NCBI GenBank assembly: GCA_033549365.1
Contig: JAWSUF010000002.1
Coordinates: forward strand, 286,082-350,081
Length of the DNA: 64,000 nucleotides
Source: Acidobacteriota bacterium
GTDB lineage: Bacteria > Acidobacteriota > Aminicenantia > Aminicenantales > Saccharicenantaceae
Reading direction: 5' to 3'
Under the pieces are notes generated by a model. That model was not told the origin of the DNA, ran no database searches, and worked only from the letters and a program-made list of their open reading frames with translations. The position numbers and the translations under genes are program-made. Numbering within the stretch: the stretch's first letter is position 1; each line of letters opens with the position of its first letter. Positions 7,253 to 29,564 of this stretch are shown here, piece after piece.

Positions 7253-9268
7253 ATGCGAAGATTCATCCGGCGTTATCTCGATCTCCCCTTGCGACGCAAG
7301 TTGAATCTGAGCTTTCTTTCCGCCGCCGTCATCGGCAGTATCATTTTTTTTGTCATTGGGACACGGCTTGTCCACCGGACCGTTTTTTCACTGGCTCAGG
7401 CCAAGGTCGGACATGACTTGTCCGCCGCCTGGATGGTTTACAACGACCGTTTGAAGGGCCTGCTCGACACCGTCCGGTTGAGCGCGGCCATGGAATGTGT
7501 TCAGAATGCCCTGCAGGCCGGCGACCGGCCGGCCGTGGTGGAGAAACTGGAAGGGATCCGCCTCGAGTACGACATGGATGTTTTCACGGTGACCGATGCC
7601 TCCGGAAGGACCGTTCTCCGGACACATCGCCCGGATGTTTTCGGGGACGATCTTTCCGGAAACCCGATCCTGGCCGCGGCCCTTTCCGGCCGCGCCGCCG
7701 CCGGAACACGGATCGTCTCCCATGAAGAACTTCTCCTTGATGGCGAGGAGTTGGCCGGCCGGGCGTTTTTCACAATTGTTCCCACTCCCATGGCCGTCGA
7801 ACGGATCGAGGATTATGAAGACCGGGGGATGATGATGGAAGCGGCGGCTCCGGTTTTCAGCGAAAGGGGAGAATTTCTGGGAGCCCTGCGCGGGGGGATT
7901 GTTCTCAACCGGAATTATGAAATCGTCGATCTGGTGAAGGACGTCGTTTTCAAAGGAGAGCGCCATCAGGACAAAGACATCGGAACGGCGACGATCTTCC
8001 AGAACGATCTTCGCATCGCCACGAATGTTCTGGACGATCAGGGCAACCGGGCGGTCGGGACGCGCGTCTCCCGGGATGTTCATCAGGCGGTTCTCAAAGA
8101 AGGCCGGGCCTGGATGGGACGTGCCTTCGTCGTCCGGGACTGGTCTATCACGGCCTATGAACCCATCCGTTCCTTCGAGGGAAACATTGTCGGCATGCTC
8201 TATGTCGGGATGCTGGAAAAACCGTATATCGACCTCAGAAACAGGGTTATGGGTGCCTTCGTATTTCTGGGGGGCCTGGGAACGGTTTTTCTCCTGGCCC
8301 TTTTCTCGATCATCGCCCGGAGCATGACGCGGCCGATGCGGGACCTCGTCGATGCCACGGAGAGAATCGCCCGGGGTGATCTCGATCACCGCCTGCGCGT
8401 CGAAAGACGCGATGAGGTCGGTCAATTGGCCGCCGCGTTCAACCGGATGACGGATGATCTGAAGAGCGCCCGGGAAAGCCGGATCGAATGGGGACGCACT
8501 TTGGAAAAACGGGTCGAGGAGCGGACGCAGGAGTTGCGGGATATGCAGGACGCACTCGTTCAGTCGGAGAAACTGGCCTCCCTCGGAAAAATGGCGGCCG
8601 GCGTCGCCCACGAAATCAACAATCCGCTGACGTCCATTCTCATCCAGACCCATCTTCTTCTTGAAAAATGCGATTCGGGCGGCGAGGCCAGAAGCTCGTT
8701 GAATCTCATCGCCGAAGAGGCGGAGCGCTGCACGCAGATCGTTCGGGGGCTTCTCGAGTTTTCCCGAAAAATGCCGGCCCGGACCGCCCCCGAGGATGTC
8801 AACGGTCTCGTCGAAAGAACCCTGCAGCTTCTGACGAACCAGATCGCGGTGCGCAGCATCGCCCTCATCAAATCCCTGGATCCCGCGCTGCCTTCCGTGG
8901 AACTCGACAGAAACAAGATGCAGCAGGTTTTTTCCAATCTTGTCATCAATGCCTGCGAGGCCATGCCCTCCGGCGGAACGCTGACCGTGTCCACCCGTCC
9001 CGGGGCGGACGGAGACGGCATCGAAGTGTCTTTCGCCGATACGGGGGGGGGGATCCCTGCGGAGAATTTGAAAAAAATATTTGACCCGTTTTTCACGACC
9101 AAAAATTTCGGGACCGGACTCGGCCTGGCCGTGAGCTACGGGATCGTCCGCCAGAGTGGCGGAACCATTCAAGTCCGAAGCGAACCTGGACGAGGTTCGG
9201 AATTCATTGTCCGGATTCCCCTGGAATTCCGGGCCGAGACAAGCGAAGCGGAGGAGGTTTCCCCATGA
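7253..9268 (+). CDS. Sensor histidine kinase with an extracytoplasmic Cache-like domain, HAMP, HisKA and HATPase_c
   Basis: A TM helix after residue 20, then a large periplasmic region, a second TM, a HAMP domain (RGDLDHRLRV...LAAAFNRMTDDL), the H-box AAGVAHEINNPLT and G-boxes DTGGGIP / GTGLGLAV. Confidence 0.85.
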   Translation: MRRFIRRYLDLPLRRKLNLSFLSAAVIGSIIFFVIGTRLVHRTVFSLAQAKVGHDLSAAWMVYNDRLKGLLDTVRLSAAMECVQNALQAGDRPAVVEKLEGIRLEYDMDVFTVTDASGRTVLRTHRPDVFGDDLSGNPILAAALSGRAAAGTRIVSHEELLLDGEELAGRAFFTIVPTPMAVERIEDYEDRGMMMEAAAPVFSERGEFLGALRGGIVLNRNYEIVDLVKDVVFKGERHQDKDIGTATIFQNDLRIATNVLDDQGNRAVGTRVSRDVHQAVLKEGRAWMGRAFVVRDWSITAYEPIRSFEGNIVGMLYVGMLEKPYIDLRNRVMGAFVFLGGLGTVFLLALFSIIARSMTRPMRDLVDATERIARGDLDHRLRVERRDEVGQLAAAFNRMTDDLKSARESRIEWGRTLEKRVEERTQELRDMQDALVQSEKLASLGKMAAGVAHEINNPLTSILIQTHLLLEKCDSGGEARSSLNLIAEEAERCTQIVRGLLEFSRKMPARTAPEDVNGLVERTLQLLTNQIAVRSIALIKSLDPALPSVELDRNKMQQVFSNLVINACEAMPSGGTLTVSTRPGADGDGIEVSFADTGGGIPAENLKKIFDPFFTTKNFGTGLGLAVSYGIVRQSGGTIQVRSEPGRGSEFIVRIPLEFRAETSEAEEVSP

Positions 9269-9648
9269 CTCAACCTGTTCGAAAAAGAATTCTTGTTGTT
9301 GATGATGAACAGATCGTCTGCAAGAGCATCCGGCAGGCTCTCGTCCGGGATGATGTCATCGTCGACATCGCGTTGTCCGCCGATGAAGCCCTCCGGCTGG
9401 AAAAGGCCGGTCCTTACGACGTCATCATCATCGACCTCATGATGCCGGGCGTCAGCGGCCTGGATCTCTTGAAATCCCTCAAGGAAATGAGTGTGAAAGC
9501 CCGGATCATCATGATCACGGGATACCCGACCATGCGGAACACCATCCAGGCCATGCAGATCGGCGCCTTTGAATTCCTCCCCAAACCCTTTCTTCCGTCC
9601 GACCTGCGCGGCGCCGTCGACCGCGCCCTGGAAACCCAACCGGACTGA
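9265..9648 (+). CDS. Stand-alone response regulator receiver (CheY-like)
   Basis: 127 aa with the acidic pocket ILVVDDE, the phospho-acceptor D in IIIDLMMPG and the conserved K in LPKPF. It overlaps the kinase stop by 4 nt. Confidence 0.85.
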   Translation: MTQPVRKRILVVDDEQIVCKSIRQALVRDDVIVDIALSADEALRLEKAGPYDVIIIDLMMPGVSGLDLLKSLKEMSVKARIIMITGYPTMRNTIQAMQIGAFEFLPKPFLPSDLRGAVDRALETQPD

Positions 9649-9669
9649 TCGGCGACCGGATCTGTGCGG

Positions 9670-9708
9670 AAAAAACGCCGGTTCTTCGCTCCTTTTTAAG
9701 CGTTTTTT
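9670..9708. terminator. Putative bidirectional intrinsic terminator between convergent genes
   Basis: Inverted repeat AAAAAACGC (9670-9678) / GCGTTTTTT (9700-9708) carrying an A-run and a T-run. It lies between the receiver gene (+) and sucD (-). The loop is long at 21 nt, so confidence is modest. Confidence 0.35.
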
Positions 9709-9716
9709 CCCTTTCA

Positions 9717-9750
9717 GGCGTGCCGATCTCACCATTCCGGCTGCGTCGCA
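9717..9750 (+). repeat. Copy A of a 34-nt conserved intergenic element (ggcgtgccgatctcaccattccggctgcgtcgca)
   Basis: 32 of 34 nt match 29565-29598. Both copies lie just 3' of a terminator-like hairpin in a convergent intergenic region. Confidence 0.5.
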
Positions 9751-9869
9751 GCCCACTCGACGTAGCCTCACTACGCCTTCGTGGGCCGCATCCTTGCCGG
9801 AACGGCAATCTCGGCCCGCGCACAACTCCGGAAAAGCAAGCCGTCGGAGGGCAGAGCCGATATTCTCGC

Positions 9870-10742
9870 TCAGGTTTTGATGGCGGATTTGAGGGTGGCG
9901 CCGATGTCGGCCGGACTCTGCGCCACGTGGACGCCGGCCGCCTTCAGTGCCTCCATTTTCTCCGCGGCCGTACCTTTTCCGCCGGCGATGATGGCGCCGG
10001 CGTGGCCCATGCGGCGTCCGGGAGGCGCCGTCTGGCCGGCGATGAAGCCGACGACGGGCTTTTTGAACTCCGCCTTGATGTAGGCGGCGGCCTCCTCTTC
10101 GGCCGAACCGCCGATCTCTCCGATCAGAATGACGGCCTCGGTTTCGGGGTCGTCCTTGAAGAGTTTCAAAAGATCGACGAATTTCAACCCCACGATGGGG
10201 TCGCCGCCGATGCCGACGGCCGTGGACTGGCCGAATCCCTGCTGGGTCACCTGCTGCACCGCCTCATAGGTCAGTGTGCCGGACCGGGAGATGATGCCGA
10301 CGGTTCCGGGAGAGTGGATGGGACCGGGCATGATGCCGATTTTGCACTTTCCGGGGGAAATCACGCCCGGCGTGTTCGGGCCGATCAGCCGGACGGGATG
10401 ATCCTTGAGAAAGGTCTTGACCCGGATCATGTCGTAAGTCGGAATCCCTTCCGTGATGCAGACGACGAGTCCGACTCCGGCTGCGGCCGCCTCCATGATG
10501 GCATCGGCCCCGGCGAAAGGGGGAACGAAAATCACGGCCGCATCGGCTTTTTCCGCTGCGACGGCGTCGGCGACGGTGTTGAAAACGGGAATGTCGAGAT
10601 GTCGCGTTCCGCCTTTGCCCGGAGTCACTCCGGCCACGACGCGCGTGCCGTACTCCGCCATGCGGCCGGTATGGAACGTGCCCTCGCTTCCCGTGATGCC
10701 CTGGACGACCACTCGAGTCTCTGCGTTGATCAGAATGCTCAT
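9870..10742 (-). CDS. sucD: Succinyl-CoA synthetase alpha subunit
   Basis: 290 aa with the CoA-binding N-terminus [10 protein letters not shown] and the phospho-His loop SRSGTLTYE. Confidence 0.9.
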
Positions 10743-10767
10743 GGGATTCTCCTTTGTTTTCCTTGCG

Positions 10768-11925
10768 CTATTTCACCAGGGCGACGACCGTCTCGGCCGC
10801 CTCCTTCATTCCCGAAGCCCAGGAGAAGGTCAGCCCGGAATCCTTGAGGATTTTCTTGCCCAGATCGACGTTGGTGCCCTCGAGACGGATGACGATGGGG
10901 ATGTTCGTTCCCAGCTCCTTGGCCGCCTTGACGACGCCCGAGGCGATAAGATCGCAACGCACGATGCCGCCGAAAATGTTGATGAGGGCGCCTTTGACGT
11001 CAGGATCCGAGACCAGGATCTTGAAGGCGTTCGTCACCGCCTCCTCGGAAACGCCTCCGCCGACATCCAGGAAGTTGGCCGGCACGCCGCCGCTGTACTT
11101 GACGATGTCCATGGTGGCCATGGCCAGACCGGCGCCGTTGACCATGCAGCCGACATTGCCGTCGAGCTTGATGTAGTTGAGATCGTGCTTTGAGGCCTCG
11201 ACTTCGAGCGGCGATTCTTCGTCGAGATCGCGGAGTTCCCGGATCTCGGGATGACGGTAGAGCGCGTTGTCGTCGAAATTCATCTTGGCGTCGAGCGCCA
11301 GAACGTCGCCGTTCTTCGTGATGAGCAGGGGATTGATCTCGGCCAACGAAGCGTCGGTTCCCTCGAACGCCTTATAGAGAGCATCGATGAAGGCCACGGC
11401 CTGTTTGAAGGTTGAGCCTTTCAGGCCGAGCTTGAAGGCCAGGTTGCGGGCCTGGAAACCCAGAAGTCCCGTTCCCGGATGAATGAACTCCTTGATGATA
11501 AGCTCCGGAGTTTCGGCGGCGACTTTTTCGATCTCCATACCGCCTTCCGTCGATGCCATGATAACGGGCGCCTCCGTGGCCCGGTCGATGACGATACCCA
11601 GATAGAGTTCCCGATCGATGTCCAGTGCTTCCTCGACGAGAAGGCTCTTGACCTTCCTCCCCTCGGGTCCCGTCTGGGGCGTGACCAGCGTCATGCCGAT
11701 CATGTCCGCGGCCAGATTTGCGGCCTGTTCGGGTGTGTCGGCGATCTTGATTCCGCCGCCTTTGCCGCGCCCGCCGGCGTGGATCTGCGCCTTGAGGACG
11801 ACGCGGGAGCCGAGGCGTTGGGCGATCTCCTGAACCTGGTCCGGTTTCCCGGCGACTTCGCCGCGGGGGACGCGGACACCGTAGCGGGCCAGAATCTGCT
11901 TGGCTTGGAATTCGTGGATTTTCAT
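10768..11925 (-). CDS. sucC: Succinyl-CoA synthetase beta subunit (ATP-grasp)
   Basis: The true start is [17 protein letters not shown] at 11925, with a GGGAGGG RBS 7 nt upstream. The ligase-CoA C-terminus is [10 protein letters not shown]. Confidence 0.9.
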
Positions 11926-12029
11926 TTTTCCCTCCCGAAATTGCATCGCCGTCGGGCGGCGGGCTGTTTTTTTATAGCAAAGGCGCACGGGGGTGTCAAT
12001 GATTGAGACGTCTCGCATCTCCTCAAGTC

Positions 12030-12058
12030 TTGACACCCCAGAAAAAAGAGTCTATAGT
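12030..12058 (+). promoter_or_regulatory. Near-consensus sigma70 promoter upstream of the mvh/hdr block
   Basis: TTGACA (12030-12035), a 17-nt spacer, then TATAGT (12053-12058). It lies in the AT-rich divergent region between sucC and mvhG. Confidence 0.5.
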
Positions 12059-12285
12059 TTCGATCTCGCGGCTTCCGACCGGTTTCGGAAAAATTTTAAT
12101 TTTTTATGATGCATTCATTGCTAAAGCGGCGACACGGAATCTTAATCCCCCTCCCGTTTATCTTTTCCCGCTCCTTGTGCCCGTCGATGTCGTCCGTTCT
12201 GTCCCCCCGACCGCCGGATTCCGGTTCCCGGCGCTTGATCTTCAATGAAGGGAGAGGACTCCACACGAGTTCGAAAGGGTGAGTC

Positions 12286-13251
12286 ATGGCGAAACCGAAA
12301 TTTGCGATTTACTGGGCCGCGAGCTGCGGAGGATGCGAGATCGCCTTCCTCGACATCAAGGAGAAGATCCTGGATTTCGATGCCGCGGCGGAACTGGTGT
12401 TCTGCCCCTGCCTCATGGACACCAAGTACTCCGATGTCGAGGCCATGGCCGATGAGGAGATCGATGTCACGCTCTTCAACGGCGGGATCCGCAACGAGGA
12501 AAACCTTCATCTGGCCCATCTTCTGCGGCGGAAATCGAAGGTTCTGGTGGCGTTCGGCTCTTGTGCCACCGAAGGGTGCATCCCGGGTCTGGCCAACCTG
12601 ACGACGAAAGAGGACATCCTGGATTATGTCTATCGCCGATCTCCGTCGGTGGCTCCCGGAAATACCGTGCTTCCGCAACTGGAGACCGAAACGCCGTTCG
12701 GGAAGCTCACGCTTCCCGCCATCCACGAAAACCTGAGGACGCTCGGGCAGGTGGTGGATGTCGACTACTTCATGCCCGGCTGCCCGCCCGTCGAGGAGCA
12801 GATCTGGGCGGTGGCCGAGGCCGCTCTTTCGGGCAAGCTTCCGCCCAAGGGGTCGCTCGTCGGCGTCAACCCCAAAACGGTCTGCGATGAATGTCCCCGG
12901 ACGAAGGACGTCAAGAAGGTCAAAGCCTTTCGGCGGCCCCATCTTGTCTCACCCCGGGACATCGATCCCGAGATCTGTCTTCTGGAACAAGGCCTCCTGT
13001 GCAACGGCCCGGCCATCCACGCCGGCTGCGGCGCCCTCTGCCCCCGGGTCAACCTGGGTTGCCGCGGCTGCTACGGCCCGGCGGCCGGCATCCAGGATGT
13101 CGGGGCCAAACTGGCCGGCGCCATCGCCTCGGTCATCGACAGCGATGATCCGGCCGAAATCGACGGCATCGTCGACCAGATCCTCGATCCGGTCGGAACC
13201 TTTTACCGGTTCAACCTGGCCGGTTCGTTTGTGGGGAGACGCGTAAGATGA
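12286..13251 (+). CDS. mvhG: [NiFe]-hydrogenase small subunit, group 3 (Mvh/F420-non-reducing type)
   Basis: The N-terminus AIYWAASCGGCEIAFLD is the proximal-cluster motif. Several further Cys clusters follow (GSCATEGC, CPRTKD, CGALCP, CRGCYGP). It overlaps the large-subunit start. Confidence 0.8.
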   Translation: MAKPKFAIYWAASCGGCEIAFLDIKEKILDFDAAAELVFCPCLMDTKYSDVEAMADEEIDVTLFNGGIRNEENLHLAHLLRRKSKVLVAFGSCATEGCIPGLANLTTKEDILDYVYRRSPSVAPGNTVLPQLETETPFGKLTLPAIHENLRTLGQVVDVDYFMPGCPPVEEQIWAVAEAALSGKLPPKGSLVGVNPKTVCDECPRTKDVKKVKAFRRPHLVSPRDIDPEICLLEQGLLCNGPAIHAGCGALCPRVNLGCRGCYGPAAGIQDVGAKLAGAIASVIDSDDPAEIDGIVDQILDPVGTFYRFNLAGSFVGRRVR

Positions 13252-14702
13252 AAACCATCACCATCGATCCCATCACCCGGCTGGAGGGACACGGCAAGAT
13301 TTCCATATTCCTCGACGACGCCGGAAACGTCGCCGATGCCTATCTTCAGATCCCCGAGCTGCGCGGGTTCGAGCAGTTCTGCATCGGCCGTCCGGTCGAG
13401 GAAATGCCCCGTATTACGACACGGATCTGCGGCGTCTGTCCCGAAGCCCATATGATGGCGGCGGCCAAGGCCTGCGACGCCGTCTATCACTGCGAACTGC
13501 CCCGCACGGCCAAGCTGCTGCGGGAGCTTCTTTATGTCGTTTTTTACGTCACCGACCATTCGACGCACTTTTACGCCCTGGGCGGCCCGGACTTCGTCAT
13601 GGGGCCAACCGCACCCAAAGCCCAGCGCAACATCCTGGGCGTCATTCACAAGGTCGGCGTTGAAATCGGCAAGAAAGTCATCGGCATGCGGGGCGCCTGC
13701 CACAACATCATCAAGCAGATGGGCGGGAAGTCCGTTCATCCCATCGGCGCCATTCCCGGCGGCATGAGCAAGGGCATGACGAAGGAGGAGCAGGCGGCGA
13801 TTCTGGCCAAGGGGAAAGAGGCCGTCGAATTCGCCAAGTTCTCGATCGGTCTTTTCAACTCCCTGGTTCTCGAAAACAAGGAGTATGTCGATCTCATCCT
13901 GAGCGACAGCTTCACGCACCGGACTTACAACATGGGACTCGTCGACGCGAAAAACCGCGTCAACTTCTACGACGGAGACGTCCGCGTCACCGGCCCGGAC
14001 GGCGCCGAACTGGCCAAGTTCAAACCGGCCGATTACTTGAACCATATCGTCGAGCATGTCGAGACCTGGTCCTACCTCAAGTTCCCCTTCCTTAAGAACG
14101 TCGGCTGGAAGGGCTTGGTCGATGGGCCAGACAGCGGCATTTACAAAGCCACGCCCCTCTCCCGGCTGAATGTTTCCGATAGTATGGCCACGCCTCTGGC
14201 CAATGAAGAGCATGACAAGATGTACAAAACCCTGGGCGGGAAGCCGGTTCATCAAACTCTGGCCACGCATTGGGCTCGCCTGATCGAGCTTCTCTATGCG
14301 GCCGAGCGCTGGGTCGAACTCGCTTCCGACCCGGAGATCACGGGCCCCGAATACCGCATCGTTCCGGACAAGACCCCGGACGAGGGCGTTGCCGTGGTTG
14401 AGGCCCCGCGGGGAACGCTTTTTCATCACTATAAAACCGACGAAAAGGGCCTTCTTCGGGAAGCCAACCTCATTGTGGGAACGACCAACAACAACGGCGC
14501 CATCAACCTTTCCGTCAAGAAAGCGGCTCAGGGATTCATCAAAAACGGCCGGGTCGACGACGGGCTCCTGAACATCGTCGAAATGGCCTTCCGGGCCTAC
14601 GACCCCTGCTTCGGCTGCGCCACGCACGCCCTCGGCCGCACCCCGCTCCGGGTTTCCGTCCACGATCACCGGGGCGAGATCATCAAGGATTTGAGGAGAT
14701 AA
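13248..14702 (+). CDS. mvhA: [NiFe]-hydrogenase large subunit, group 3
   Basis: N-terminal RICGVCPEAH (RxCGxCxxxH) and C-terminal DPCFGCATH, followed by a roughly 20-aa extension of the type removed by the maturation protease. Confidence 0.85.
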   Translation: MKTITIDPITRLEGHGKISIFLDDAGNVADAYLQIPELRGFEQFCIGRPVEEMPRITTRICGVCPEAHMMAAAKACDAVYHCELPRTAKLLRELLYVVFYVTDHSTHFYALGGPDFVMGPTAPKAQRNILGVIHKVGVEIGKKVIGMRGACHNIIKQMGGKSVHPIGAIPGGMSKGMTKEEQAAILAKGKEAVEFAKFSIGLFNSLVLENKEYVDLILSDSFTHRTYNMGLVDAKNRVNFYDGDVRVTGPDGAELAKFKPADYLNHIVEHVETWSYLKFPFLKNVGWKGLVDGPDSGIYKATPLSRLNVSDSMATPLANEEHDKMYKTLGGKPVHQTLATHWARLIELLYAAERWVELASDPEITGPEYRIVPDKTPDEGVAVVEAPRGTLFHHYKTDEKGLLREANLIVGTTNNNGAINLSVKKAAQGFIKNGRVDDGLLNIVEMAFRAYDPCFGCATHALGRTPLRVSVHDHRGEIIKDLRR

Positions 14703-16659: not shown

Positions 16660-18498
16660 TTGACGAAAGACGGGTGTTCTTCGCTGGATACGGCGCTCCG
16701 CGTCCTGAACGAAAGCCGGGACGCCGCCGCCATCCGCTGTGCGGTCATCGATCTGGGCTACGAGAAGAGCGCTGAGGCCTACAAGATTCTGATCGAGCGT
16801 CTGGACGACCCCAACCCCGCCGTGCAGCACGCCGCCGTCGTTTCCCTCGGCCGCTCCGGCAGACCGGAGGCCGTAGAAGAACTGATCAAGCCCAAGATTT
16901 TCAGGTCGCCGTGGGCCAATATCCGCTGGGTCGCGGTGTCCGCGGTCGGCCGGCTGGGCGACCATCGGGTCATCGACCCCCTCATCAAGGCCGCGGAGGA
17001 TCCCGAATGGATCGTTCGAACCCAGGCCGTAGCCGAACTGATGGACAAGATCCGGGACATCATCGCCGCGAAAAACCTGAGACTGACCCGGCTGCTCATC
17101 AATATGTTTTATCTCGACAACAAAGAGATCGTCGACCTGGCCATTGAGGGTTTTGAAGACCTCGGTCTGGAGAGCCTGCCTTGCCTCCATGACGCGCTCT
17201 CGGCCTCTTCGGCCGCAATCCGGGCCAACGCGGCCCGGGCTCTGGGCCGCATCCGGTCCTCCCAGTCGACGCCTTATCTCATGGAGCTTCTCAAGGACGA
17301 CGATGCCCGGGTCCGTGCCGCGGCCGCCGAGGCGCTGGGCGTGATCGGCGACAAAATCGCGATCGAGGCCCTGGTCGGAAAAGTCCAGGACAACGTCGGT
17401 GTCGTTCGGGACAGCGCCGTCCAGGCTTTGGCTCGTGTCGGGAAACCGGCGACCATTCCGATTTTGAACGCCTTGACCCGGGAGAGAGACAAATTCGCCC
17501 AAACGGCCTATTTGAAAACTCTGGGCCTCATCCGCGACCCGAAATCCGCCCCGGCCCTGATCGGCTGTCTGCGCAGCAGCTATTTCATCGTCCGCCAGAC
17601 GGCGTTTTCCTCCCTCGTCCTCTTCGGTCCGTCCATTGCCAACCTCCTCATCCCGCTCCTCTCTTATAACAAATCCGACATCGACACACTCAAAAAAGAC
17701 GCCTGTTGCCGGGAACGTCCGGAACTCCAATTGCGGGCCGTCAAGGCGCTCGGCGGTTTGGAGGATCATCGGGTCGTCGCCCTGTTGAAAGACCTTGTCG
17801 AGGACAGTCTGCCCGATGTCCAGGAAGCGGTCGTTCACGCCCTCTTCCAAATCGGGTGCGCGGCCTGGGGACGTTGCACGGCTCTCAAAGTTCTGGCCGA
17901 GGTCGGCGATGCGTCCCTCGTGCCTCGTATCATCCCCTCTCTCAGGGACCATTCCGAGAATGTCCGGTTCGAGGCCGTGCGGGCCCTGACCCGCATGGGC
18001 GGTCCAGAGGCCGTCAATCATCTCATCCGTATGGCCCGGCGGGACAAGGCGGATTTCGTCCGCACGGAGTCCGTCCGGGGCCTGCGGCGGATCGGTCTGG
18101 GGCGGCCCGGTGTTCTGGATACGGCCCTGGCCGGACTCAATGATCCCTGTCGCGATGTCCGTTCTCACTCGGCCCGACTCCTGGGGAACTTTCACGACGA
18201 GCGGTCCATCCCGCCTCTTCTCAAAGCCATGGTCGATCCCCATTGGAGCGTCCGCCAAAGCGCGGAGATCGCGCTCTTGAATTTCGGCCGCAAAGCCGTA
18301 CCTCACCTTGTCGAGACATTGAAAAGTCGCTCCTGGTGGGCCCGTTTCCGGGCCGCCCGCCTTCTGGGAGAAAGCGGGGATTCCAGAGCCGAGAAACCCC
18401 TGAAGGGTTTGATCGCCCGGAAGGGAGAAAGGAATAGCGTTCGGGACATCGCCCGGGCCTCTCTTGCCAAACTGGAAAAAAAGGATAGCGCGTCATAA
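16660..18498 (+). CDS. HEAT-repeat (PBS-lyase-like) protein
   Basis: 612 aa made of repeated units of the A-x-x-ALG-x-IG/D-x-x-A-x-x-x-L type (e.g. AVVSLGRSG, AVSAVGRLGD, ARALGRIRS, AAEALGVIGD, AVQALARVG, AVRALTRMGG). Confidence 0.7.
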   Translation: MTKDGCSSLDTALRVLNESRDAAAIRCAVIDLGYEKSAEAYKILIERLDDPNPAVQHAAVVSLGRSGRPEAVEELIKPKIFRSPWANIRWVAVSAVGRLGDHRVIDPLIKAAEDPEWIVRTQAVAELMDKIRDIIAAKNLRLTRLLINMFYLDNKEIVDLAIEGFEDLGLESLPCLHDALSASSAAIRANAARALGRIRSSQSTPYLMELLKDDDARVRAAAAEALGVIGDKIAIEALVGKVQDNVGVVRDSAVQALARVGKPATIPILNALTRERDKFAQTAYLKTLGLIRDPKSAPALIGCLRSSYFIVRQTAFSSLVLFGPSIANLLIPLLSYNKSDIDTLKKDACCRERPELQLRAVKALGGLEDHRVVALLKDLVEDSLPDVQEAVVHALFQIGCAAWGRCTALKVLAEVGDASLVPRIIPSLRDHSENVRFEAVRALTRMGGPEAVNHLIRMARRDKADFVRTESVRGLRRIGLGRPGVLDTALAGLNDPCRDVRSHSARLLGNFHDERSIPPLLKAMVDPHWSVRQSAEIALLNFGRKAVPHLVETLKSRSWWARFRAARLLGESGDSRAEKPLKGLIARKGERNSVRDIARASLAKLEKKDSAS

Positions 18499-18557
18499 TT
18501 TTTTACGGACTTATAAGCTTTTATAGCTGGCGGTAATTCCAGTCGAGGAGAGAGGAC

Positions 18558-18965
18558 ATGAGAGTCAAGCTCAGGGCCGGGCCCGAACAGCGGAAGTTTA
18601 TCGAGAGAATCGAGGAGCTGTCCGGAGAGGACATCTTCGCCTGCTACCAGTGCGGCCGGTGTTCGGCAGGTTGTCCGGTGGCCCTCGAGATGGACATCCT
18701 GCCCAATCAGGTCATCCGGCTGATCCAGTTGGGCCTCGCCGAAGAGGTCCTCGGTTCGAAAACCCTGTTTCTCTGCGCATCCTGCTTCACGTGCCAGTCC
18801 CGCTGCCCCAAGGGCATCGATATGGCCCGGGTCATGGAAGCCGTCCGCCACCTGCTCGAACCGAAAGGGAAAGACGTCTGCGGTCCGGACGAGATTACCC
18901 CGGAGCTGGCCAAGGAACTGCCCCAACAGGTTCTTGTGTCTCTGTTCCGCAAATTCAGCAAATAA
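18558..18965 (+). CDS. hdrC: Heterodisulfide reductase subunit C-like (2x[4Fe-4S])
   Basis: CYQCGRCSAGCP and CASCFTCQSRCP motifs. Confidence 0.8.
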   Translation: MRVKLRAGPEQRKFIERIEELSGEDIFACYQCGRCSAGCPVALEMDILPNQVIRLIQLGLAEEVLGSKTLFLCASCFTCQSRCPKGIDMARVMEAVRHLLEPKGKDVCGPDEITPELAKELPQQVLVSLFRKFSK

Positions 18966-18968
18966 GGT

Positions 18969-19910
18969 GTGCCCATGATGAAGATCCATTACTACCCCGG
19001 ATGCACGCTGAAGGAAAAAACGACGAATCTGGATCTGTCCACCCGCGAGGCCATGAAGCGCCTGGATGTCGAACTTGTCGAGCCCGACGGCTGGGCCTGC
19101 TGCGGGGCGGAATATCCGCTGACCGAGGAAAAAATCTCGGGATTGGCCGCGCCGGTGCGCGTCCTGCGCCAGGTTCGGGACGAAGGGGGCGAGCTCGTCG
19201 TCACGACCTGTTCCTTCTGCTATGCCGTCCTGAAACGGGCCAACAAGGCCATGATCGAGGACCCCTTGAAAAACAGGAGGATCAACGCCTATCTCAAGGA
19301 TGACATCAAGATCGATCCCCTGACCAAAACGAAAACGACGGGATTCGAGGACTACAAGGGGGAGGTCAAAGTCCTCCATCTCCTTGAATATATCAAGGAC
19401 GAGGTCACTTATCCAAGGCTCCGGTCCCGAATCAAGCGCGATCTCGCCGGACTGCCCATCGCCGCGTATTATGGCTGCCGGCTGCTCCGTCCCCAGGAGG
19501 ATATGAGTTGGGGTGAGCCGGACGAGCCCCGCTTTTTCGAGGAATTCCTGGAAGCCGTGGGCTGCCGGGCCGTCGACTATCCCTTCAAACAGGAGTGCTG
19601 CGGATCCTATCTTTCGGTGTCCATGCCGGACGCTGCATCCGACGCCTCCTACCGGGTTCTCAGGTCGGCCGGCCTCAACGGCGCCGCCGCGGCCACCGTG
19701 ACCTGCCCCCTCTGCTTCTACAATCTGGATCGTCGCCAGGAAAAAATCCGGGAAATGTTTCCCGACTTCCCGGGCCTGCCGGTGGTCTTTTTCACGCAGA
19801 TTCTGGCCTGGGCCCTGGGCGTCGACCGGGATGTTCTGGGGCTGGACCAGCATGCCGTTCCCGCCGGTCATCTGTTTGCCGATGACCGCCCAGCCGAGGT
19901 GAGGACATGA
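18969..19910 (+). CDS. hdrB: Heterodisulfide reductase subunit B-like (two CCG domains)
   Basis: YYPGCTLKEK...WACCGAEYP and YYGCRLLRP...CCGSY. Confidence 0.85.
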   Translation: MPMMKIHYYPGCTLKEKTTNLDLSTREAMKRLDVELVEPDGWACCGAEYPLTEEKISGLAAPVRVLRQVRDEGGELVVTTCSFCYAVLKRANKAMIEDPLKNRRINAYLKDDIKIDPLTKTKTTGFEDYKGEVKVLHLLEYIKDEVTYPRLRSRIKRDLAGLPIAAYYGCRLLRPQEDMSWGEPDEPRFFEEFLEAVGCRAVDYPFKQECCGSYLSVSMPDAASDASYRVLRSAGLNGAAAATVTCPLCFYNLDRRQEKIREMFPDFPGLPVVFFTQILAWALGVDRDVLGLDQHAVPAGHLFADDRPAEVRT

Positions 19911-21886
19911 CAAAGAAGAAGACGAAACCGACGGATAAGCGCATCGGGCTGTTCGTCTGCCACTGCGGCGTCAACATCGCCGGCGTGGTGGACGTCGAAA
20001 AAGTGGCCGAGGTCATGAAGGATTACCCGGGGGTGAACTTCTCGGCCGACTACATCTACATGTGCTCCGACCCCGGGCAGCAGATGATCATCGACACGAT
20101 CAAAGAGAAGAAACTCGACAGCATCATCATCGCCGCCTGTTCGCCGACGCTGCACGAAAAAACATTCCAGGAGGCGGCCCGCCTGGCCGGTCTCAATCCC
20201 TACCAGATCGAAATCGCCAACATCCGCGAACAGAACAGTTGGGTCCACAGCGACAAGGACTGGGCGACCCGGAAAGCCGTCAAGATCTGCAAGGCGCATG
20301 TCGAGAAGGCCCTTCTCAATGAGAGCCTCGAACCTATCCGCGTGGACGTCTCCAGAAAAGCCCTGGTCATCGGCGGCGGCGTCTCCGGCCTGCAGGCCGC
20401 GCTCGACATCGCCGACCACGGCTACGAAGTCCTCCTGGTCGAAAAGAATCCCTCGATCGGGGGGAAAATGATCCAGCTTTCGGAAACGTTCCCCACGCTG
20501 GACTGCTCCCAGTGCATCATGACTCCGAAGATGGTCGAGGCGCATCGCCATCCGAATATCCGCATCCTGACCTATCACGAAGTGGATTCCATCTCCGGGT
20601 TCGTCGGCAATTTCAAGGTCCGGATCAAGAAGAAACCGCGTTACGTCGATGAAGACCTGTGCAATCTTTGCGGTGAATGCGAAAAGGTCTGTCCGCAGGT
20701 CGTTCCGGACGAGTTCAACATGGGGTTGTCGTTCCGCAAAGCCATCTATATGCCCTTTCCCCAGGCCGTGCCCGGAACCTACACTCTGGACGAGGCCAAC
20801 TGCCTCGGCCTGAATCCCGTCCGTTGCGGCAAGTGCAAGGATGTCTGCGACGTCCACGCCATCGATTTCGACATGAAAGAGGAAATCATCGAGGAAGAGA
20901 TCGGGGCCATTGTCGTGGCCACGGGCTACGACCTTTACACGATGCAGGCCCTGGGCGAATTCGGAGGCGAGAAATACGACGACGTCATCAACGGTCTTGA
21001 GTTCGAACGGATCCTCTCCGCCTCGGGTCCGACGGGCGGTGTCATCCGCCGGCCGTCGGACGGCAAGGTCCCCAAGTCCATCGTCTTTGTTCAGTGCAGC
21101 GGATCGAGGGATACCGAAAAACACCTGCCCTATTGCTCCAAGATCTGCTGCATGTATACGGCCAAGCACGCCATGCTCTACAAGCACCGCGTCCCGGACG
21201 GGCAGGCGACGGTCTTCTACATCGACGTCCGGACGGGCGGCAAGGCTTTCGATGAGTTCTACCAGAGGACGGTCGAGGAGGACAAGGTCCTCTACATTCG
21301 AGGCAAGGTCTCCAAGATCTTCAAAGAAGGGGACAAGGTCATCGTTTGGGGCGTCGACACTTTGAGCGGCCGGAAGGTCGAGGTCGAGGCCGACATGGTC
21401 GTCCTGGCCATGGCCATGGTCAAGGCCGACGGCGTGGGGGATCTCCTGAAGAAGCTCAAGATTTCGACCGATATTCACGGTTTCCTGGCTGAAGCCCATG
21501 CCAAACTGAGGCCCGTCGAAAGTCTAAATGCCGGTTTCTACCTGGCCGGCTGCGCCCACGGGCCCAAGGACATCCCCGAAGCGGTCTCCCAGGCTTCGGC
21601 CGCGGCGGCCAAGGTCGGGGATCTCTTCGCCCAGAAGGAACTTCTCCATGAGCCGACCATCGTGCCGGTCGACGACGACCTGTGCTCCGGCTGCGGCATC
21701 TGCGTTACGATGTGCCCCTATCAGGCCCGCACCCTGGACCGCGAACGCGGCGTCGTTGTGGTCAACGAGATTCTCTGCGAGGGTTGCGGCGCCTGCGCCG
21801 CGGCCTGCCCGGCCGGCGCCGCCCAGCAGAGAAACCAGACGGACGACCAGATCTTCGCGATGGTCACCGCCATGATGAAAGGATGA
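19907..21886 (+). CDS. hdrA: Heterodisulfide reductase subunit A-like FAD/Fe-S bifurcating flavoprotein
   Basis: The N-terminus IGLFVCHCGVNIAG is a HdrA hallmark. FAD site ALVIGGGVSGLQAALD. It carries several 4Fe-4S motifs, including the C-terminal CSGCGICVTMCP and CEGCGACAAACP. Confidence 0.9.
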   Translation: MTKKKTKPTDKRIGLFVCHCGVNIAGVVDVEKVAEVMKDYPGVNFSADYIYMCSDPGQQMIIDTIKEKKLDSIIIAACSPTLHEKTFQEAARLAGLNPYQIEIANIREQNSWVHSDKDWATRKAVKICKAHVEKALLNESLEPIRVDVSRKALVIGGGVSGLQAALDIADHGYEVLLVEKNPSIGGKMIQLSETFPTLDCSQCIMTPKMVEAHRHPNIRILTYHEVDSISGFVGNFKVRIKKKPRYVDEDLCNLCGECEKVCPQVVPDEFNMGLSFRKAIYMPFPQAVPGTYTLDEANCLGLNPVRCGKCKDVCDVHAIDFDMKEEIIEEEIGAIVVATGYDLYTMQALGEFGGEKYDDVINGLEFERILSASGPTGGVIRRPSDGKVPKSIVFVQCSGSRDTEKHLPYCSKICCMYTAKHAMLYKHRVPDGQATVFYIDVRTGGKAFDEFYQRTVEEDKVLYIRGKVSKIFKEGDKVIVWGVDTLSGRKVEVEADMVVLAMAMVKADGVGDLLKKLKISTDIHGFLAEAHAKLRPVESLNAGFYLAGCAHGPKDIPEAVSQASAAAAKVGDLFAQKELLHEPTIVPVDDDLCSGCGICVTMCPYQARTLDRERGVVVVNEILCEGCGACAAACPAGAAQQRNQTDDQIFAMVTAMMKG

Positions 21887-22326
21887 CCATGTTCGAGCCT
21901 CAAATCATGTCGTTTCTCTGCAAATGGTGCACGAGCGCGGCGGCCGACCTGGCCGGGACATCCCGGATCGAGCACGCGCCCAACGCCGTCTCGATGCGGG
22001 TCATGTGCTCGAGCCGGGTGGACCCGCAGCACATTCTCTACGCGTTCCGGGAAGGCGCCGACGGCGTCTTTCTCGGCGGGTGTCATCCGGGCGACTGCCA
22101 TTATGTCGAGGGCAACTACAAGACCCTCCGGCGGATCGCCCTTCTCAAGCGGATGATGAAGGACCTGGGTATCGATCCCCGCCGGCTCCGGCTGGAATGG
22201 ATTTCCGCCGCGGAAGGCCGGAAATACGCCCAGGTCATGGACGAATTCACCGAGCAGATCCGGGCCTTGGGCCCGTTGCGTTTGAACGAAAACGCCTTAT
22301 TGAGAGAGGTCGAGCACGATGAGTAA
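21883..22326 (+). CDS. mvhD: MvhD-like [2Fe-2S] electron-transfer subunit linking hydrogenase to HdrA
   Basis: MTMFEPQIMSFLCKWCTS...MRVMCSSRV...LGGCHPGDCHY. Its ATGA overlaps the hdrA stop. The longer track ORF from 21682 is upstream read-through. Confidence 0.85.
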   Translation: MTMFEPQIMSFLCKWCTSAAADLAGTSRIEHAPNAVSMRVMCSSRVDPQHILYAFREGADGVFLGGCHPGDCHYVEGNYKTLRRIALLKRMMKDLGIDPRRLRLEWISAAEGRKYAQVMDEFTEQIRALGPLRLNENALLREVEHDE

Positions 22327-23101
22327 AACCGAAAGCAAAACCAAGAAGGCCGTGTCCCGCACCAAGAAAAAGGAAGCGGGGAAAGTTCCCATCTTCGTCA
22401 TGGGCAAACGGTACGACGTCCCCGACTCCCTGACCATTCAGAAAGCCCTCGAATATGCGGGCTATCAACTGGTCCGGGGCTGCGGCTGCCGGGGAGGAAT
22501 CTGCGGCGCCTGCGGCACGGTCTACCGCTTCCCCGACTCCTACCGGGTCGAAGTCGGACTGGCCTGCCAGACCGTCGTTCAGCCGGACATGTACATCGCC
22601 CAGATTCCCTTTTTCCCGGGAAACAAGGCGGTCTACGACATCGAAACCCTCGATCCTACGGGGGCGACGGTGGCCGCTCTTTATCCGGAAATCTTCAAGT
22701 GCGTCGGCTGCGGCACCTGCACGCGAAGCTGTCCCATGGACATCGACGTTCTGAACTACGTCTCCAAAGCCATTCAGGGAGACATTGCGGCCGTGGCCGA
22801 GGGCTCCTTCGACTGCGTCATGTGCGGGCTGTGCGCGGCGCGCTGTCCGGCCGAAGAAGTCCAGTACAACTTCGCCATCCTGGCCCGCCGTCTTTACGCC
22901 CGCCACCTGGCACCGAAGGCCGTGCATCTGGTCCAGGCCGTGGCCAATGTCGAAAACGGAAAATATGACCAGGCCCTGGAGGAACTCAAGAAATTGAGCA
23001 CCGAGGACCTGGCGAAAATTTACAAGAGTCTCGAACACGAACCCGACATGGCGGACGAGGACTGGACGCCGAAGGAAAAGGTCCAGATCTATGAAGATTG
23101 A
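22319..23101 (+). CDS. Succinate dehydrogenase/fumarate reductase-type iron-sulfur subunit (SdhB/FrdB-like), with no membrane anchor nearby
   Basis: The 2Fe-2S pattern CGCRGGICGACG, then CVGCGTCTRSCP and CVMCGLCAARCP. Confidence 0.8.
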   Translation: MSKTESKTKKAVSRTKKKEAGKVPIFVMGKRYDVPDSLTIQKALEYAGYQLVRGCGCRGGICGACGTVYRFPDSYRVEVGLACQTVVQPDMYIAQIPFFPGNKAVYDIETLDPTGATVAALYPEIFKCVGCGTCTRSCPMDIDVLNYVSKAIQGDIAAVAEGSFDCVMCGLCAARCPAEEVQYNFAILARRLYARHLAPKAVHLVQAVANVENGKYDQALEELKKLSTEDLAKIYKSLEHEPDMADEDWTPKEKVQIYED

Positions 23102-23135
23102 CATGACGGGCGACGATCAGAAGGGAGGGTGACCC

Positions 23136-24809
23136 ATGCCGTACACACCGGAATTGAACGAACTCATCAAGAAGGTCGAGAAAACGCGGCCGGCCCGCGT
23201 GGAGAAGAAGCGCAAGGGCGAGGAATTCCCCGCCATGTCGCTTCAGGAGCGGAAGGATATCCTCAAGTTCCATCCCGACTTCAAGGAAGAAGGGCGGTCC
23301 GAAATCAAGGTCGGGCCCAACACAGGCTACCGGATCGCCAACGAGATGGTCAGCCTCATCCATGCCAAAAGCCGGCTGGATCCGGATGCCGTCGATCTCA
23401 ACAAGGTCGACTTCGAAACCGATGTCCTGGTCGTCGGCGGCGGCGGTGCGGGCGCTTCGGCGGCTCTTCTGGCGCGGGAAAACGGGGCGAAGGTCCTTAT
23501 CGCCACCAAGCTTCGGTTGGGCGATGCCAACACCATGATGGCCGAAGGCGGAATCCAGGCCGCCACGAAATATCGAAAGGATTCGCCCTATTACCATTAT
23601 CTCGACGCCATGGGCGGCGGCCATTTCAAGAACGACCCCGACCTCGTCAAAACCCTGGTTCTCGAGGCGCCCAAGGTCATGGCCTGGCTGGAAAAGCAGG
23701 GCACGATGTTCTCGAAATTCGACGACGGGTTGCTCAAGGCCATGCACGGCGGCGGAACGTCCCGCAAGAGGATGCATTACGCCGGCGACATCACCGGCGC
23801 CGAGATCATGCGGACGCTTCGCGACGAGGTCAAAAACCATCCCGAAGACATCGATGTTCTCGAGTTCACGACGGCCGTGGAACTCCTCCTCGACGAAAAC
23901 GGAGCCTGCGCCGGCGCCGTTCTCTACAATCTGGAAACCGAAGAGTACTTCATCGTCCGGGCCAAGGCGACCATCCTGGCCACGGGAGGATCGGGCCGCC
24001 TGCACATCCAGGACTTCATGACCACCAACCACTACGGCGCGACGGGCGACGGCCTGATTCTCGGATACCGGGCCGGCGTTCCGCTTCGGTTCCTGCATAC
24101 GGTCCAGTACCACCCGACAGGCGCCGTGTTCCCCGAACAGGCCGAAGGGCTTCTCATCACCGAAAAATTCCGCGGCGCCGGGGCCAATGTGTTGAACGTC
24201 GACGGCGAGCAGTTCGTCTTCGAGCGCGAGCCCCGCGATGTCGAATCATCGGCGATCATCCGGGAATGCCTTGAACGGGGGAAGGGCGTGCCGACGCCAA
24301 CCGGCAAATTCGGCGTCTGGCTCGACTCGCCCATGATCGACATCCTCCAGGGCGAGGGCACGGTCCGCAAGGAATTCCCGGGCAAGTGGATCCTCTTCAA
24401 GCGCTACGGCATCGACATCACCAAGGAACCCATGCTCATCTACCCCACGCTGCATTATCAGAACGGAGGGCTTGAAATCAAGCCCAATTCCGAAACCCGG
24501 GTGCCGGGGCTCTACGCCGCCGGCGAGGTGAGCGGCGGCATCCACGGAGAAAACCGCCTGATGGGCAACTCTCTCCTTGATGTCGTGGTTTTCGGCCGCA
24601 TCGCCGGCTGCGCCGCGGCCGATTATGTGAAAACCAGGGCCGAGGCCGGCCAGCCGACGCTCGATCACGTCCGGGCCTATCACAAAGCCCTGGAAGAGGC
24701 GGGGATCTCCGTGGACAACCGCGTGGCGCCCATGATTCTTCCCGATTATTCCAATCCCGAGGTCCGGAAAAAACAGCTAACGACGGCCTATCACGGGACG
24801 TTGCGCTGA
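23136..24809 (+). CDS. Fumarate reductase/succinate dehydrogenase flavoprotein-like FAD enzyme (FrdA/TfrA-like) with an N-terminal extension of about 95 aa
   Basis: The Rossmann motif VLVVGGGGAGASAAL starts only at about residue 97. The C-terminal GLYAAGEVSGGIHGENRLMGNSL is the FRD/SDH flavoprotein active-site region. Confidence 0.8.
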   Translation: MPYTPELNELIKKVEKTRPARVEKKRKGEEFPAMSLQERKDILKFHPDFKEEGRSEIKVGPNTGYRIANEMVSLIHAKSRLDPDAVDLNKVDFETDVLVVGGGGAGASAALLARENGAKVLIATKLRLGDANTMMAEGGIQAATKYRKDSPYYHYLDAMGGGHFKNDPDLVKTLVLEAPKVMAWLEKQGTMFSKFDDGLLKAMHGGGTSRKRMHYAGDITGAEIMRTLRDEVKNHPEDIDVLEFTTAVELLLDENGACAGAVLYNLETEEYFIVRAKATILATGGSGRLHIQDFMTTNHYGATGDGLILGYRAGVPLRFLHTVQYHPTGAVFPEQAEGLLITEKFRGAGANVLNVDGEQFVFEREPRDVESSAIIRECLERGKGVPTPTGKFGVWLDSPMIDILQGEGTVRKEFPGKWILFKRYGIDITKEPMLIYPTLHYQNGGLEIKPNSETRVPGLYAAGEVSGGIHGENRLMGNSLLDVVVFGRIAGCAAADYVKTRAEAGQPTLDHVRAYHKALEEAGISVDNRVAPMILPDYSNPEVRKKQLTTAYHGTLR

Positions 24810-24831
24810 TCCCAACAAGCGAGGTGCGTCC

Positions 24832-25110
24832 ATGCCGGTGAGACACAGAGAAAAGCCGTTCGGGCTCCCTAAGCCCGAAACTCCCCATGGTGAGATCGTC
24901 ATCCTGGATGACCGGTGCAAGGGCTGTGCCTTCTGCATCGAATACTGCCCGCATGATGTGCTGGTGATATCCAAGAGGTTTAACATCAAGGGCTACCACC
25001 CCCCGGAAGTCGAAAAAGCCGAACTGTGCATCAACTGCGGTTTCTGCCGCATGATCTGCCCGGAGTTCGCCATTTACACCTATGAATCCACCACCGGGGA
25101 GAAACCATGA
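24832..25110 (+). CDS. korD: 2-oxoacid:ferredoxin oxidoreductase delta subunit (2x[4Fe-4S])
   Basis: CKGCAFCIEYCP and CINCGFCRMICP. Confidence 0.8.
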   Translation: MPVRHREKPFGLPKPETPHGEIVILDDRCKGCAFCIEYCPHDVLVISKRFNIKGYHPPEVEKAELCINCGFCRMICPEFAIYTYESTTGEKP

Positions 25111-25137
25111 ACGGAATCCAAGGAAAGGTGACGTCCC

Positions 25138-27744: not shown

Positions 27745-27879
27745 CCCGGATTCGGTAAACCGAAAGAGCTTTGTGGACAACGCTGGAATCCCCCCGGTGA
27801 TCCGGGCGGGACATCCGGCCTCCCGGGGGTCCGAATGATTGGGAATTCTCCCGGGGGAGGCAACATATTGCAGGAGGGA

Positions 27880-29496: not shown

Positions 29497-29518
29497 CCTC
29501 TCCGGGGCTGTGCGTCTT

Positions 29519-29553: not shown

Positions 29554-29564
29554 ATGACCCTTCG

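Follow-up and report, generated by a model that had tools for sequence, protein, structure and literature searches.

A duplicated 34-nt sequence in an Acidobacteriota genome is one arm of a larger hairpin-forming repeat, probably of the REPIN/BIME-like type

A 34-nt sequence occurring twice in a 64,000-nt stretch of an Acidobacteriota contig (the whole stretch is called the window) was analyzed together with its surroundings. The 34-mer is the best-conserved piece, one arm, of a larger hairpin-forming repeat of ∼176–180 nt. We consider it probable that this larger unit is a lineage-specific, ∼176-nt, non-autonomous, structured and mosaic intergenic repeat of the REPIN/BIME-like type. As such it represents a new family within an ordinary class (REP/REPIN/BIME-like), and current understanding is not overturned by it.

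The window was scanned with the pattern GGCGTGCCGATNTCACCATTCCGGCTGNGTCGCA. Exact matches were obtained at two positions, 9717–9750 (site 1) and 29565–29598 (site 2), both on the + strand, and the two copies were identical to each other at 32 of 34 positions. No match was obtained in 100 dinucleotide-preserving shuffles, with up to three mismatches allowed, indicating that the duplication in the same orientation described by the earlier note is real and not expected by chance. The inverted repeat with A/T runs that the note had placed before each 34-mer was also recovered. At site 1, 9670–9678 pairs with 9700–9708 (9 bp, 21-nt loop), and at site 2, 29518–29528 pairs with 29543–29554 (11 bp with one bulge, 14-nt loop). 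The gene calls likewise agreed that both sites lie between convergent genes, which are listed below.

9265–9648, + strand: response regulator gene at site 1
9870–10742, − strand: sucD, facing the response regulator gene
27835–29496, + strand: class I fumarate hydratase gene, left of site 2
29640–29708, − strand: 22-aa ORF, right of site 2
29730–30449, − strand: ABC-2 permease gene, following the 22-aa ORF

Pairwise alignment showed that the similarity between sites 1 and 2 extends to the left of the 34-mer, through the hairpin, as far as CCGGnnCTGTGCG at 9656 and 29502. At the sequence level the regions downstream of the 34-mer diverge, as had been claimed, but site 2 still fits the whole long-hairpin model weakly (18 bits, 29557–29669, − strand).

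Site 1 carries a full element, referred to as copy 1, and its parts are given one per line. The folding strand named here and below is the − strand of the window at sites 1 and 2 and the + strand at site 3, where a third copy was found.

9656–9831, − strand: copy 1, full element, composed of closing helix, long hairpin, mini-hairpin and hairpin 2
9656–9668, no strand assigned: left terminal strand CCGGATCTGTGCG, which pairs with CGCACAACTCCGG at 9819–9831 as the closing helix (terminal inverted repeat)
9670–9708, no strand assigned: hairpin 2, the "terminator" of the earlier note, with a 9-bp A-run/T-run stem and a 21-nt loop
9709–9718, no strand assigned: junction segment CCCTTTCAGG, which is CCCTTCGGG in most copies; a mini-hairpin of 2–3 bp is predicted
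9717–9750, − strand: 34-mer copy 1, which on the folding strand makes up the 3′ arm of the long hairpin
9751–9786, − strand: apex of the long hairpin, GCCCAC...CGTAG-loop-CTACG...GTGGGC
9787–9819, − strand: opposing arm of the long hairpin, an inverted and diverged version of the 34-mer region
9832–9851, no strand assigned: extra repeat module AAAAGCAAGCCGTCGGAGGG, also found beside the copies on contigs L004 and L017 (blastn)

The 13-nt terminal pair, written CCGGAtcTGTGCG and CGCACAacTCCGG, is complementary at 11 of 13 positions, and in L004a, a copy on metagenome contig L004, the closing helix shows a compensatory change to CCGAG/CTCGG. The long hairpin is imperfect and comprises ∼45 bp. 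A small palindrome (TTGCCG-GAA-CGGCAA) is held within the arm at 9787–9819, and GGCTGCG-T-CGCAGCC lies at the inner end of the 34-mer; the positions of these palindromes in the two arms do not correspond, and other copies have the palindrome in degraded form. The junction between hairpin 2 and the long hairpin is a short CCCTT-N-GGG; read on the folding strand, a tiny GAA hairpin is predicted between the two. Across copies, hairpin 2 has stems of 9–13 bp, pyrimidine-rich loops of 14–25 nt, and an A-run and a T-run at its foot. The loop of copy 1 is pyrimidine-rich as well, and purine-rich when read on the − strand. The stem sequence of hairpin 2 differs in nearly every copy, yet the loops are homologous. 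The extra module at 9832–9851 matched L004 at 17 of 17 positions, and the corresponding sequences of L017 and L004 matched each other at 33 of 33 (blastn).

The 64 kb were searched for copies by unfiltered blastn and nhmmer runs and with a covariance model built on the long hairpin, likewise unfiltered. Three copies were found, all of them extragenic or overlapping gene ends, and nothing else in the window matched. The features of copies 2 and 3 are as follows.

29502–29669, − strand: copy 2, a mosaic variant that keeps the left end and the 34-mer but has another hairpin 2 and a "type B" inner module
29518–29554, no strand assigned: hairpin 2 of copy 2, TAACGCCAATT / AATTCGGCGTTA, with a 14-nt CU-rich loop
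29565–29598, − strand (folding strand): 34-mer copy 2, found as a pattern match
29599–29629, no strand assigned: "type B" module CCTTTCGGTATCCCGCAAGGAGGATTCCGCG, which replaces the type A apex and is similar to L004 positions 95–130
33348–33528, + strand: copy 3, full but degenerate, found by blastn and nhmmer (E 1e-44); opposite in orientation, it folds on the + strand
33432–33465, + strand: 34-mer homologue in copy 3, GGCATGCCGCTCGACAGATTCCAACCGCACTGCA on the − strand; CCGG is changed to CCAA and the partner CCGG to TTGG

The weak partner arm of copy 2 overlaps the end of the 22-aa ORF, and copy 3 lies between a 61-aa membrane ORF (33541–33726, − strand) and the strong promoter of the gntR-ABC operon. 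Moreover, seven more copies or relics were identified on five metagenome contigs from very close relatives. The nearest named relatives of this Acidobacteriota MAG are Candidatus Aminicenantes. A scan of the metagenomes returned three true contigs and one chance contig, and the copies on L006 and L017 were located via close homologues of window proteins. These copies are given by contig.

L002: copy after the ETF-alpha gene
L004: full copy, variant and relic, clustered upstream of a crp-like gene
L005: full copy, overlapping the ispF stop codon
L006: orthologue of site 2, with a fumarase 95% identical
L017: partial copy

With a third copy in the window and seven on metagenome contigs, the earlier note's reservation that the 34-mer might be a chance duplicate no longer applies. 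The 34-mer is the slowest-evolving segment of the element, being conserved at 32 of 34 positions within the genome and at 28–34 of 34 in other strains. Its homologue in copy 3 differs at 13 of 34 positions, and compensatory changes occur in the partner arm.

On the other hand, the element was not found in ∼175 kb of DNA, syntenic with the window or adjoining such regions, from relatives at 77–90% protein identity (L007–L015 and L019–L023), where a 21-nt fragment in L015 was the only trace. Weak covariance-model matches (E about 0.03–0.08) were obtained in L019 and L021–L023, and those in L022 and L023 fell on an unrelated palindrome upstream of gntR. A core pattern of 20 specified bases gave only a chance match within a gene (L001) in the genome collection, and a scan of the viral collection gave no match. 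Plasmids, phages and E. coli genomes contained no match to the element, and a literature search on Aminicenantes repeats returned nothing relevant. As judged from the sequences covered by these searches, the repeat does not extend beyond a single narrow lineage of Aminicenantes-like Acidobacteriota.

The folding of the element was strongly dependent on the strand. The RNA fold of copy 1 had a free energy of −110.8 kcal/mol (z −6.1) on the − strand versus −86.7 on the + strand, and DNA parameters gave the same strand order (−52.5 on the − strand versus −44.6 on the + strand). For the four full copies, the consensus energy was −75 kcal/mol with 63 pairs on the folding strand versus −43 with 48 pairs on the opposite strand. 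The cells of the long hairpin comprised 107 Watson–Crick pairs, 27 G-U pairs and 10 mismatches on the folding strand, whereas its complement gave 107, 1 and 36, respectively. The covariance model scored 129 bits on the folding strand versus 47 on the opposite strand at site 1, and 88.6 bits on the + strand versus 15.4 on the − strand at site 3.

In the four full copies, 93.6% of the long-hairpin cells were paired. Seven compensatory pairs were counted in the long hairpin, compared with 2.4 ± 1.2 in shuffles (none of 500 reached seven) and 0–2 in slid controls. In copy 3, CCGG/CCGG is replaced by CCAA/TTGG and GTAG/CTAC by GTCG/CGAC, and in L005 the apex pair CCCAC/GTGGG is replaced by CTCTC/GAGAG. 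Because only four sequences were available and they are mutually related, this covariation is supportive and not conclusive. The check on folding and covariation suggested in the earlier note thus supports the long hairpin, which folds on the complement of the strand written there. Judging from these sequence comparisons, selection maintains the structure on one strand, in the form of either RNA or single-stranded DNA. Copy 3, where the folding strand is antisense to both neighbors, is the most decayed copy, with 19 of its 63 pairs broken.

The presence of the element was then compared between strains (in the sense of filled and empty sites). Contig L016 contains 13 nt where the window has 241 nt, and the flanks are 97.5% identical (blastn breakpoints 9888 and 9646). 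The block concerned is the following.

9647–9887, no strand assigned: inserted block, comprising copy 1, the extra module, and new last codons and stop of sucD

The sucD product of L016 is 99% identical at the protein level, and its sucD and response-regulator genes overlap at TTAG. The C-terminus of sucD reads ...ALG* in L015, L016 and L017, and ...AIKT* in the window only, indicating that the window represents the derived, inserted state. Through the insertion at site 1, sucD acquired different last codons and another stop, and the response regulator gene came to end in TGA instead of TAA. In L015, which is syntenic over 14.7 kb (90% protein identity), a 24-nt gap is found at the position of site 1. 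L018 is 89–97% identical over 20 kb and has no copy; only TAACGCACAGCC remains at site 2, and CCGGG together with CTCGACCCGCACACAG at site 3, resembling deletion scars. These "scars" may be assembly artefacts because the contig has fragmented genes. Taken as sequence comparisons, these data show that strains of 90–99% identity differ from one another through the gain and loss of copies.

At five of six independent loci, the same element end lies 1–14 nt past the stop codon of a co-oriented gene or overlaps it. This closeness to stop codons hints at targeting or at a function at gene ends. The orientation relative to the neighbors is mixed: sense at sites 1 and 2, antisense at site 3 and in L002, and upstream in L004a. 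In L005, the folding strand is antisense to ispF, and the other flank runs off the contig.

The copies are mosaics of a few modules, with two inner types (A and B) and at least five hairpin-2 types found in varied combinations, as is typical of BIMEs. The type B inner module of site 2 is shared with L004b, a copy on L004. Compared with the orthologous site 2, L006 has kept the ends and the 34-mer, while hairpin 2 and the apex have been replaced; in their place it has the L002 type of hairpin 2 and a type A-like apex, both being types known from other loci. Such mosaic combinations, including the site 2/L006 pair, suggest that modules are exchanged between dispersed copies, with the conserved segments as anchors.

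The earlier note had listed a REP-like element among its candidates, and this proposal gains support from a family that is multi-copy, extragenic, hairpin-forming, mosaic and polymorphic between strains. REPINs are REP doublets that form hairpins and occur with RAYT transposases in Pseudomonas and Enterobacteria (PMC3116915, PMC3337134). They consist of two conserved inverted units and a variable spacer that keeps the hairpin, with A/T runs at its foot, fold as single strands and form families specific to a lineage (PMC3337134, PMC3116915). The present element is likewise extragenic and multi-copy, and its inverted conserved units enclose a looser, less conserved spacer that preserves a long hairpin. 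It also has A/T runs at the foot of the hairpin, is predicted to fold as a single strand, varies between close strains and is restricted to a lineage, a different family being present in L022/L023. However, it shares no sequence similarity with REPINs and is about twice the size of the 89-bp type REPIN. Unlike REPINs, it has an extra second hairpin and a closing terminal helix, and its arms are not clearly small palindromes as REP units are. In REP-RAYT systems, extragenic copies number tens to hundreds per genome, and a RAYT gene (IS200-like, HUH/Y1) is typically flanked by the repeats; three copies lie in the 64 kb of the window.

The mosaic of a few conserved modules is shared with the BIMEs and REP clusters of E. 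coli and with RIME of Sinorhizobium. Head-to-head or tail-to-tail clustering (L004) and location at the 3′ ends of operons are further points of likeness to BIMEs and REP clusters, but there is no similarity to E. coli genomes and the modules of the element are longer. MITE-type structured repeats include Correia elements of Neisseria, ERIC/IRU, pneumococcal BOX, RUP and SPRITE (PMC3184786, PMC3049150). Like Correia, ERIC and BOX, the element is 100–200 nt long, carries terminal inverted repeats, is modular in the manner of BOX, would form stable hairpins when transcribed, and inserts near genes, where it may affect transcripts at their 3′ or 5′ ends. It differs from them in that no target-site duplication was seen (Correia duplicates TA) and in that its pairing is strand-asymmetric.

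Hairpin 2 also resembles a bidirectional intrinsic terminator, since it has a G+C-containing stem, an A-run and a T-run, and lies between convergent genes at sites 1 and 2. However, its loops are 14–25 nt rather than 3–8 nt, its T-run, present at site 1, is weak at site 2 and in several copies, and it sits in a repeated element with conserved flanks and loop. A consensus terminator scan called no site at the three window copies, hairpin 2 not being called because of its 14–25-nt loops. The A/T-run hairpin of the earlier note is real, but it does not match a consensus terminator.

For a REPIN/BIME-like repeat, we propose that spread would occur at the DNA level via a single-stranded, hairpin-folded intermediate, handled by a trans-acting enzyme that would be encoded elsewhere in the genome, for which a RAYT/IS200-like HUH enzyme serves as the model. 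No RAYT or other transposase was present among the 28 window ORFs scanned. Gene conversion between copies may add to the spread, and the element would settle at gene ends because insertions are tolerated there. At places where convergent genes are transcribed into the element, the long hairpin may act together with hairpin 2 as a two-way structure that forms 3′ ends or blocks exonucleases. Such an action would be only incidental, by analogy with the REP elements of E. coli, whose biology leads one to expect side effects at the 3′ ends of mRNAs.

Conservation along the element is uneven, with a near-invariant 34-mer and a fast, compensated turnover of the hairpin-2 stem, which is not predicted by neutral decay of a selfish repeat. 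This unevenness could mean a sequence-specific host function, for example protein binding. A bolder account would make the element an undescribed single-strand-transposing replicator of an uncultivated phylum-level group, one that targets the very ends of genes and places its left end at or near their stop codons. It would be a mobile "3′-end cassette" that brings its own stop codon together with a two-way terminator-like hairpin and a hairpin that blocks exonucleases, and that rewrites gene termini, as at sucD, with the 34-mer as the putative recognition site of its enzyme. We regard this account as possible but rather doubtful.

Given the strand asymmetry of pairing, the element might be a functional RNA module, such as a 3′-UTR stabilizer, a two-way terminator cassette or a 3′-UTR-derived small RNA, in which the 34-mer and the CU/purine-rich loop act in RNA and repetition is secondary. 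G-U pairs are confined to one strand (27 versus 1), as is typical of RNA. The upstream sucCD and ABC operons at sites 1 and 2 have the folding strand as their sense strand, and the element would therefore be part of their 3′ UTR. Hairpin 2 is flanked on both sides by A/T runs like a bidirectional terminator, its loops remain homologous while the stems covary, and the copy that is antisense to both neighbors, at site 3, is the most decayed. However, the element is missing from L016, with its 97.5% identical flanks, and from all the relatives at 77–90% protein identity. In L002, and in L005 on the side of ispF, the neighboring gene or genes also run antisense to the folding strand, and neither a promoter nor an Rfam family was found. 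The closing helix lies beyond the T-run and cannot form in a transcript that ends at hairpin 2, whose 14–25-nt loops are poor for intrinsic termination. These points make a functional RNA module unlikely. Movement of the element as double-stranded DNA would be expected of a classical MITE, that is, an internally deleted derivative of a DDE-transposase insertion sequence mobilized via the 13-nt terminal inverted repeats. The 11/13 complementarity of the terminal pair with its compensatory changes in L004a, the size of ∼176 nt and the presence/absence polymorphism are all consistent with this, but no consistent target-site duplication was seen at the four full copies, and the filled/empty pair shows just an imperfect CGCC(G)ATCA repeat that is missing from empty sites. 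Moreover, the strong strand asymmetry of pairing is unexpected for a double-stranded substrate, the module swaps at site 2/L006 and the truncated copies with the same left end fit recombination better than cut-and-paste, and searches of plasmids, phages and E. coli turned up no parent insertion sequence. A textbook MITE was thus rejected for want of a target-site duplication, and we consider the classical MITE in general to be quite improbable.

The earlier note had also named a protein-binding site and a recombination site as candidates. The 34-mer evolves more slowly than any other segment while the neighboring modules swap, as would be expected if it were a site-specific binding or recombination site (Xer-, integrase- or attC-like) and the surrounding similarity were incidental. 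However, the 34-mer always lies within the same architecture and its partner arm covaries. At site 3 the 34-mer has changed at 13 of 34 positions and its partner arm shows compensation, no recombinase is encoded nearby, and the flanking genes are housekeeping genes and not cassettes. An isolated binding or recombination site is accordingly a very remote prospect, and the REPIN/BIME-like repeat is the reading we prefer.

Several other identities were tried and rejected. Rfam 15 gave no match over the whole window at gathering thresholds, and at E up to 10 the region 9600–9900 gave one chance-level lncRNA match (13 bits versus 45). No tRNA or tmRNA was detected by the scan, and no sigma-70-like promoter was found by scanning in or beside the three window copies. 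A small-RNA gene starting at the 34-mer, as the earlier note had proposed, was discarded: the opposite strand folds, there is no promoter, the upstream flanks share nothing and the orientations are mixed. A sigma-54 or sigma-70 promoter inside the 34-mer was rejected after visual inspection and scanning. Since the element is dispensable in a 97.5%-identical strain, it is not a conserved cis-regulator of sucCD or of the fumarase gene. Coding ORFs starting from a GTG inside the 34-mer (9720–10847 and 29568–29930) would run antisense through real genes, the GTG is missing in L005 and L004, and the substitutions between copies are compensatory and not synonymous. A type I toxin–antitoxin system based on the hydrophobic 22-aa ORF at copy 2 was not retained, copies 1 and 3 being without such an ORF. 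The 22-aa ORF belongs to the ABC operon itself, since L019, an 88% relative lacking the element, also has it behind the ABC-2 gene. A group II intron end (GUGCG), a retron, a hammerhead or other ribozyme, an integron attC and uptake signal sequences were dropped because there is no reverse transcriptase or integrase nearby, no Rfam match, no cassette context and no conserved cores.

Small hairpin repeats are known mostly from Proteobacteria and Firmicutes, and the Aminicenantes-like Acidobacteriota are a group known only from metagenomes. A documented repeat family with an insertion caught in the act is provided here for this group. The family joins REPIN-like, MITE-like and terminator-like features. 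One of its insertions altered the C-terminus and stop of sucD, a gene of central metabolism, without harm. Such repeats break assemblies and bins and mimic terminators or small RNAs in annotation, and they can mark strains.

Two further observations were made. By eye, a pseudoknot between the CU-rich loop and purine-rich segments is possible at site 2 only. In the relatives at 88% identity (L022 and L023), an unrelated, near-perfect palindrome of ∼110 nt is located upstream of the same gntR promoter. Because of this palindrome, different hairpin-repeat families seem to be common in the clade, which fits the view of the present repeat as ordinary but new.

Window positions 16660-29496 were compared with the syntenic loci of three relatives (L009, L010 and L018) and, going by these loci, the window appears to encode a conserved anaerobic carbon-metabolism cluster. 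The cluster includes class I fumarase, the sucCD genes lie 18 kb away, and the copies of the hairpin-forming element are located at the edges of these operons.

Window features
16660-29496: genes of the predicted anaerobic carbon-metabolism cluster (HEAT-repeat, heterodisulfide-reductase-like (CCG, FlpD), FAD/Fe-S, 2-oxoacid:ferredoxin oxidoreductase and class I fumarase)
29640-29708, minus strand: conserved hydrophobic ORF of 22 aa, MAKLVWAVLMILIVVLLFIVSA, bearing a Shine-Dalgarno sequence
33271-33298, minus strand: sigma-70 promoter of the gntR-ABC operon, near-consensus (TTGACA-16-TATAGT, 11/12)

The -35 box of the gntR-ABC promoter falls within the palindrome GTTCTTGACAAGAAC, a plausible candidate for a GntR operator serving autoregulation. 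The gntR-ABC-2 operon ends with the 22-aa ORF, which also occurs in L006, another contig with an element copy, and as MAKFIWLFILIVMIIVLFILAA in the 88% relative L019. This ORF is likely a genuine small membrane protein, of a kind that routine annotation would overlook.

In two 88% relatives, a near-perfect palindrome of about 110 nt (L023:1336-1442 and L022:2321-2442) was found upstream of the gntR promoter, at a position analogous to window site 3. This palindrome (GGCACTCATGGAAGCCCTGAGTACTGCGAAACGCC...) differs from the window element and folds at -93.7 kcal/mol (z -10.3). There is also a related, smaller hairpin, CTCATAAGCCGGAAACGGCTTATGAG, roughly 80 nt upstream of it. The palindrome probably represents a further REPIN-like family, separate from the window element.

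In the 90% relative L015, sucD and the response-regulator gene are separated by 24 nt. This gap contains GTGCGTGAAAACGCCCGG (L015:5413-5434), which is identical at 17/18 positions to the left end plus the first half of the stem in the L005 copy. The L015 sequence could be the remnant of a lost element, or it could be the seed of the family. In the close relative L018, the fumarase ORF no longer has its stop codon and reads on through the deleted site 2, reaching 604 aa, and the ABC genes of the same contig are fragmented (gene calls at 12001-13367; region 13470-13600). These observations reflect either a real deletion fusing the gene end or an error-prone assembly that collapsed hairpins.

A 58-nt segment, CGGCTTCCGCTTTTCGGGCTCGGGGGAATCCC..., adjoins the element copies of L017 and L004 (L017:1172-1229 and L004:411-468, 96.6% identical); the two contigs come from different samples and their gene contexts differ. 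The segment may be an additional mosaic module, or may mark a rearrangement linking sucD to the crp region.

The window also holds a pair of direct repeats of about 1 kb each (218-1220 and 40135-41137; repeat families D1-D3), which are 71-78% identical and lie 39.9 kb apart. Both segments are matched by L018 and L015, and they are presumably paralogous genes.
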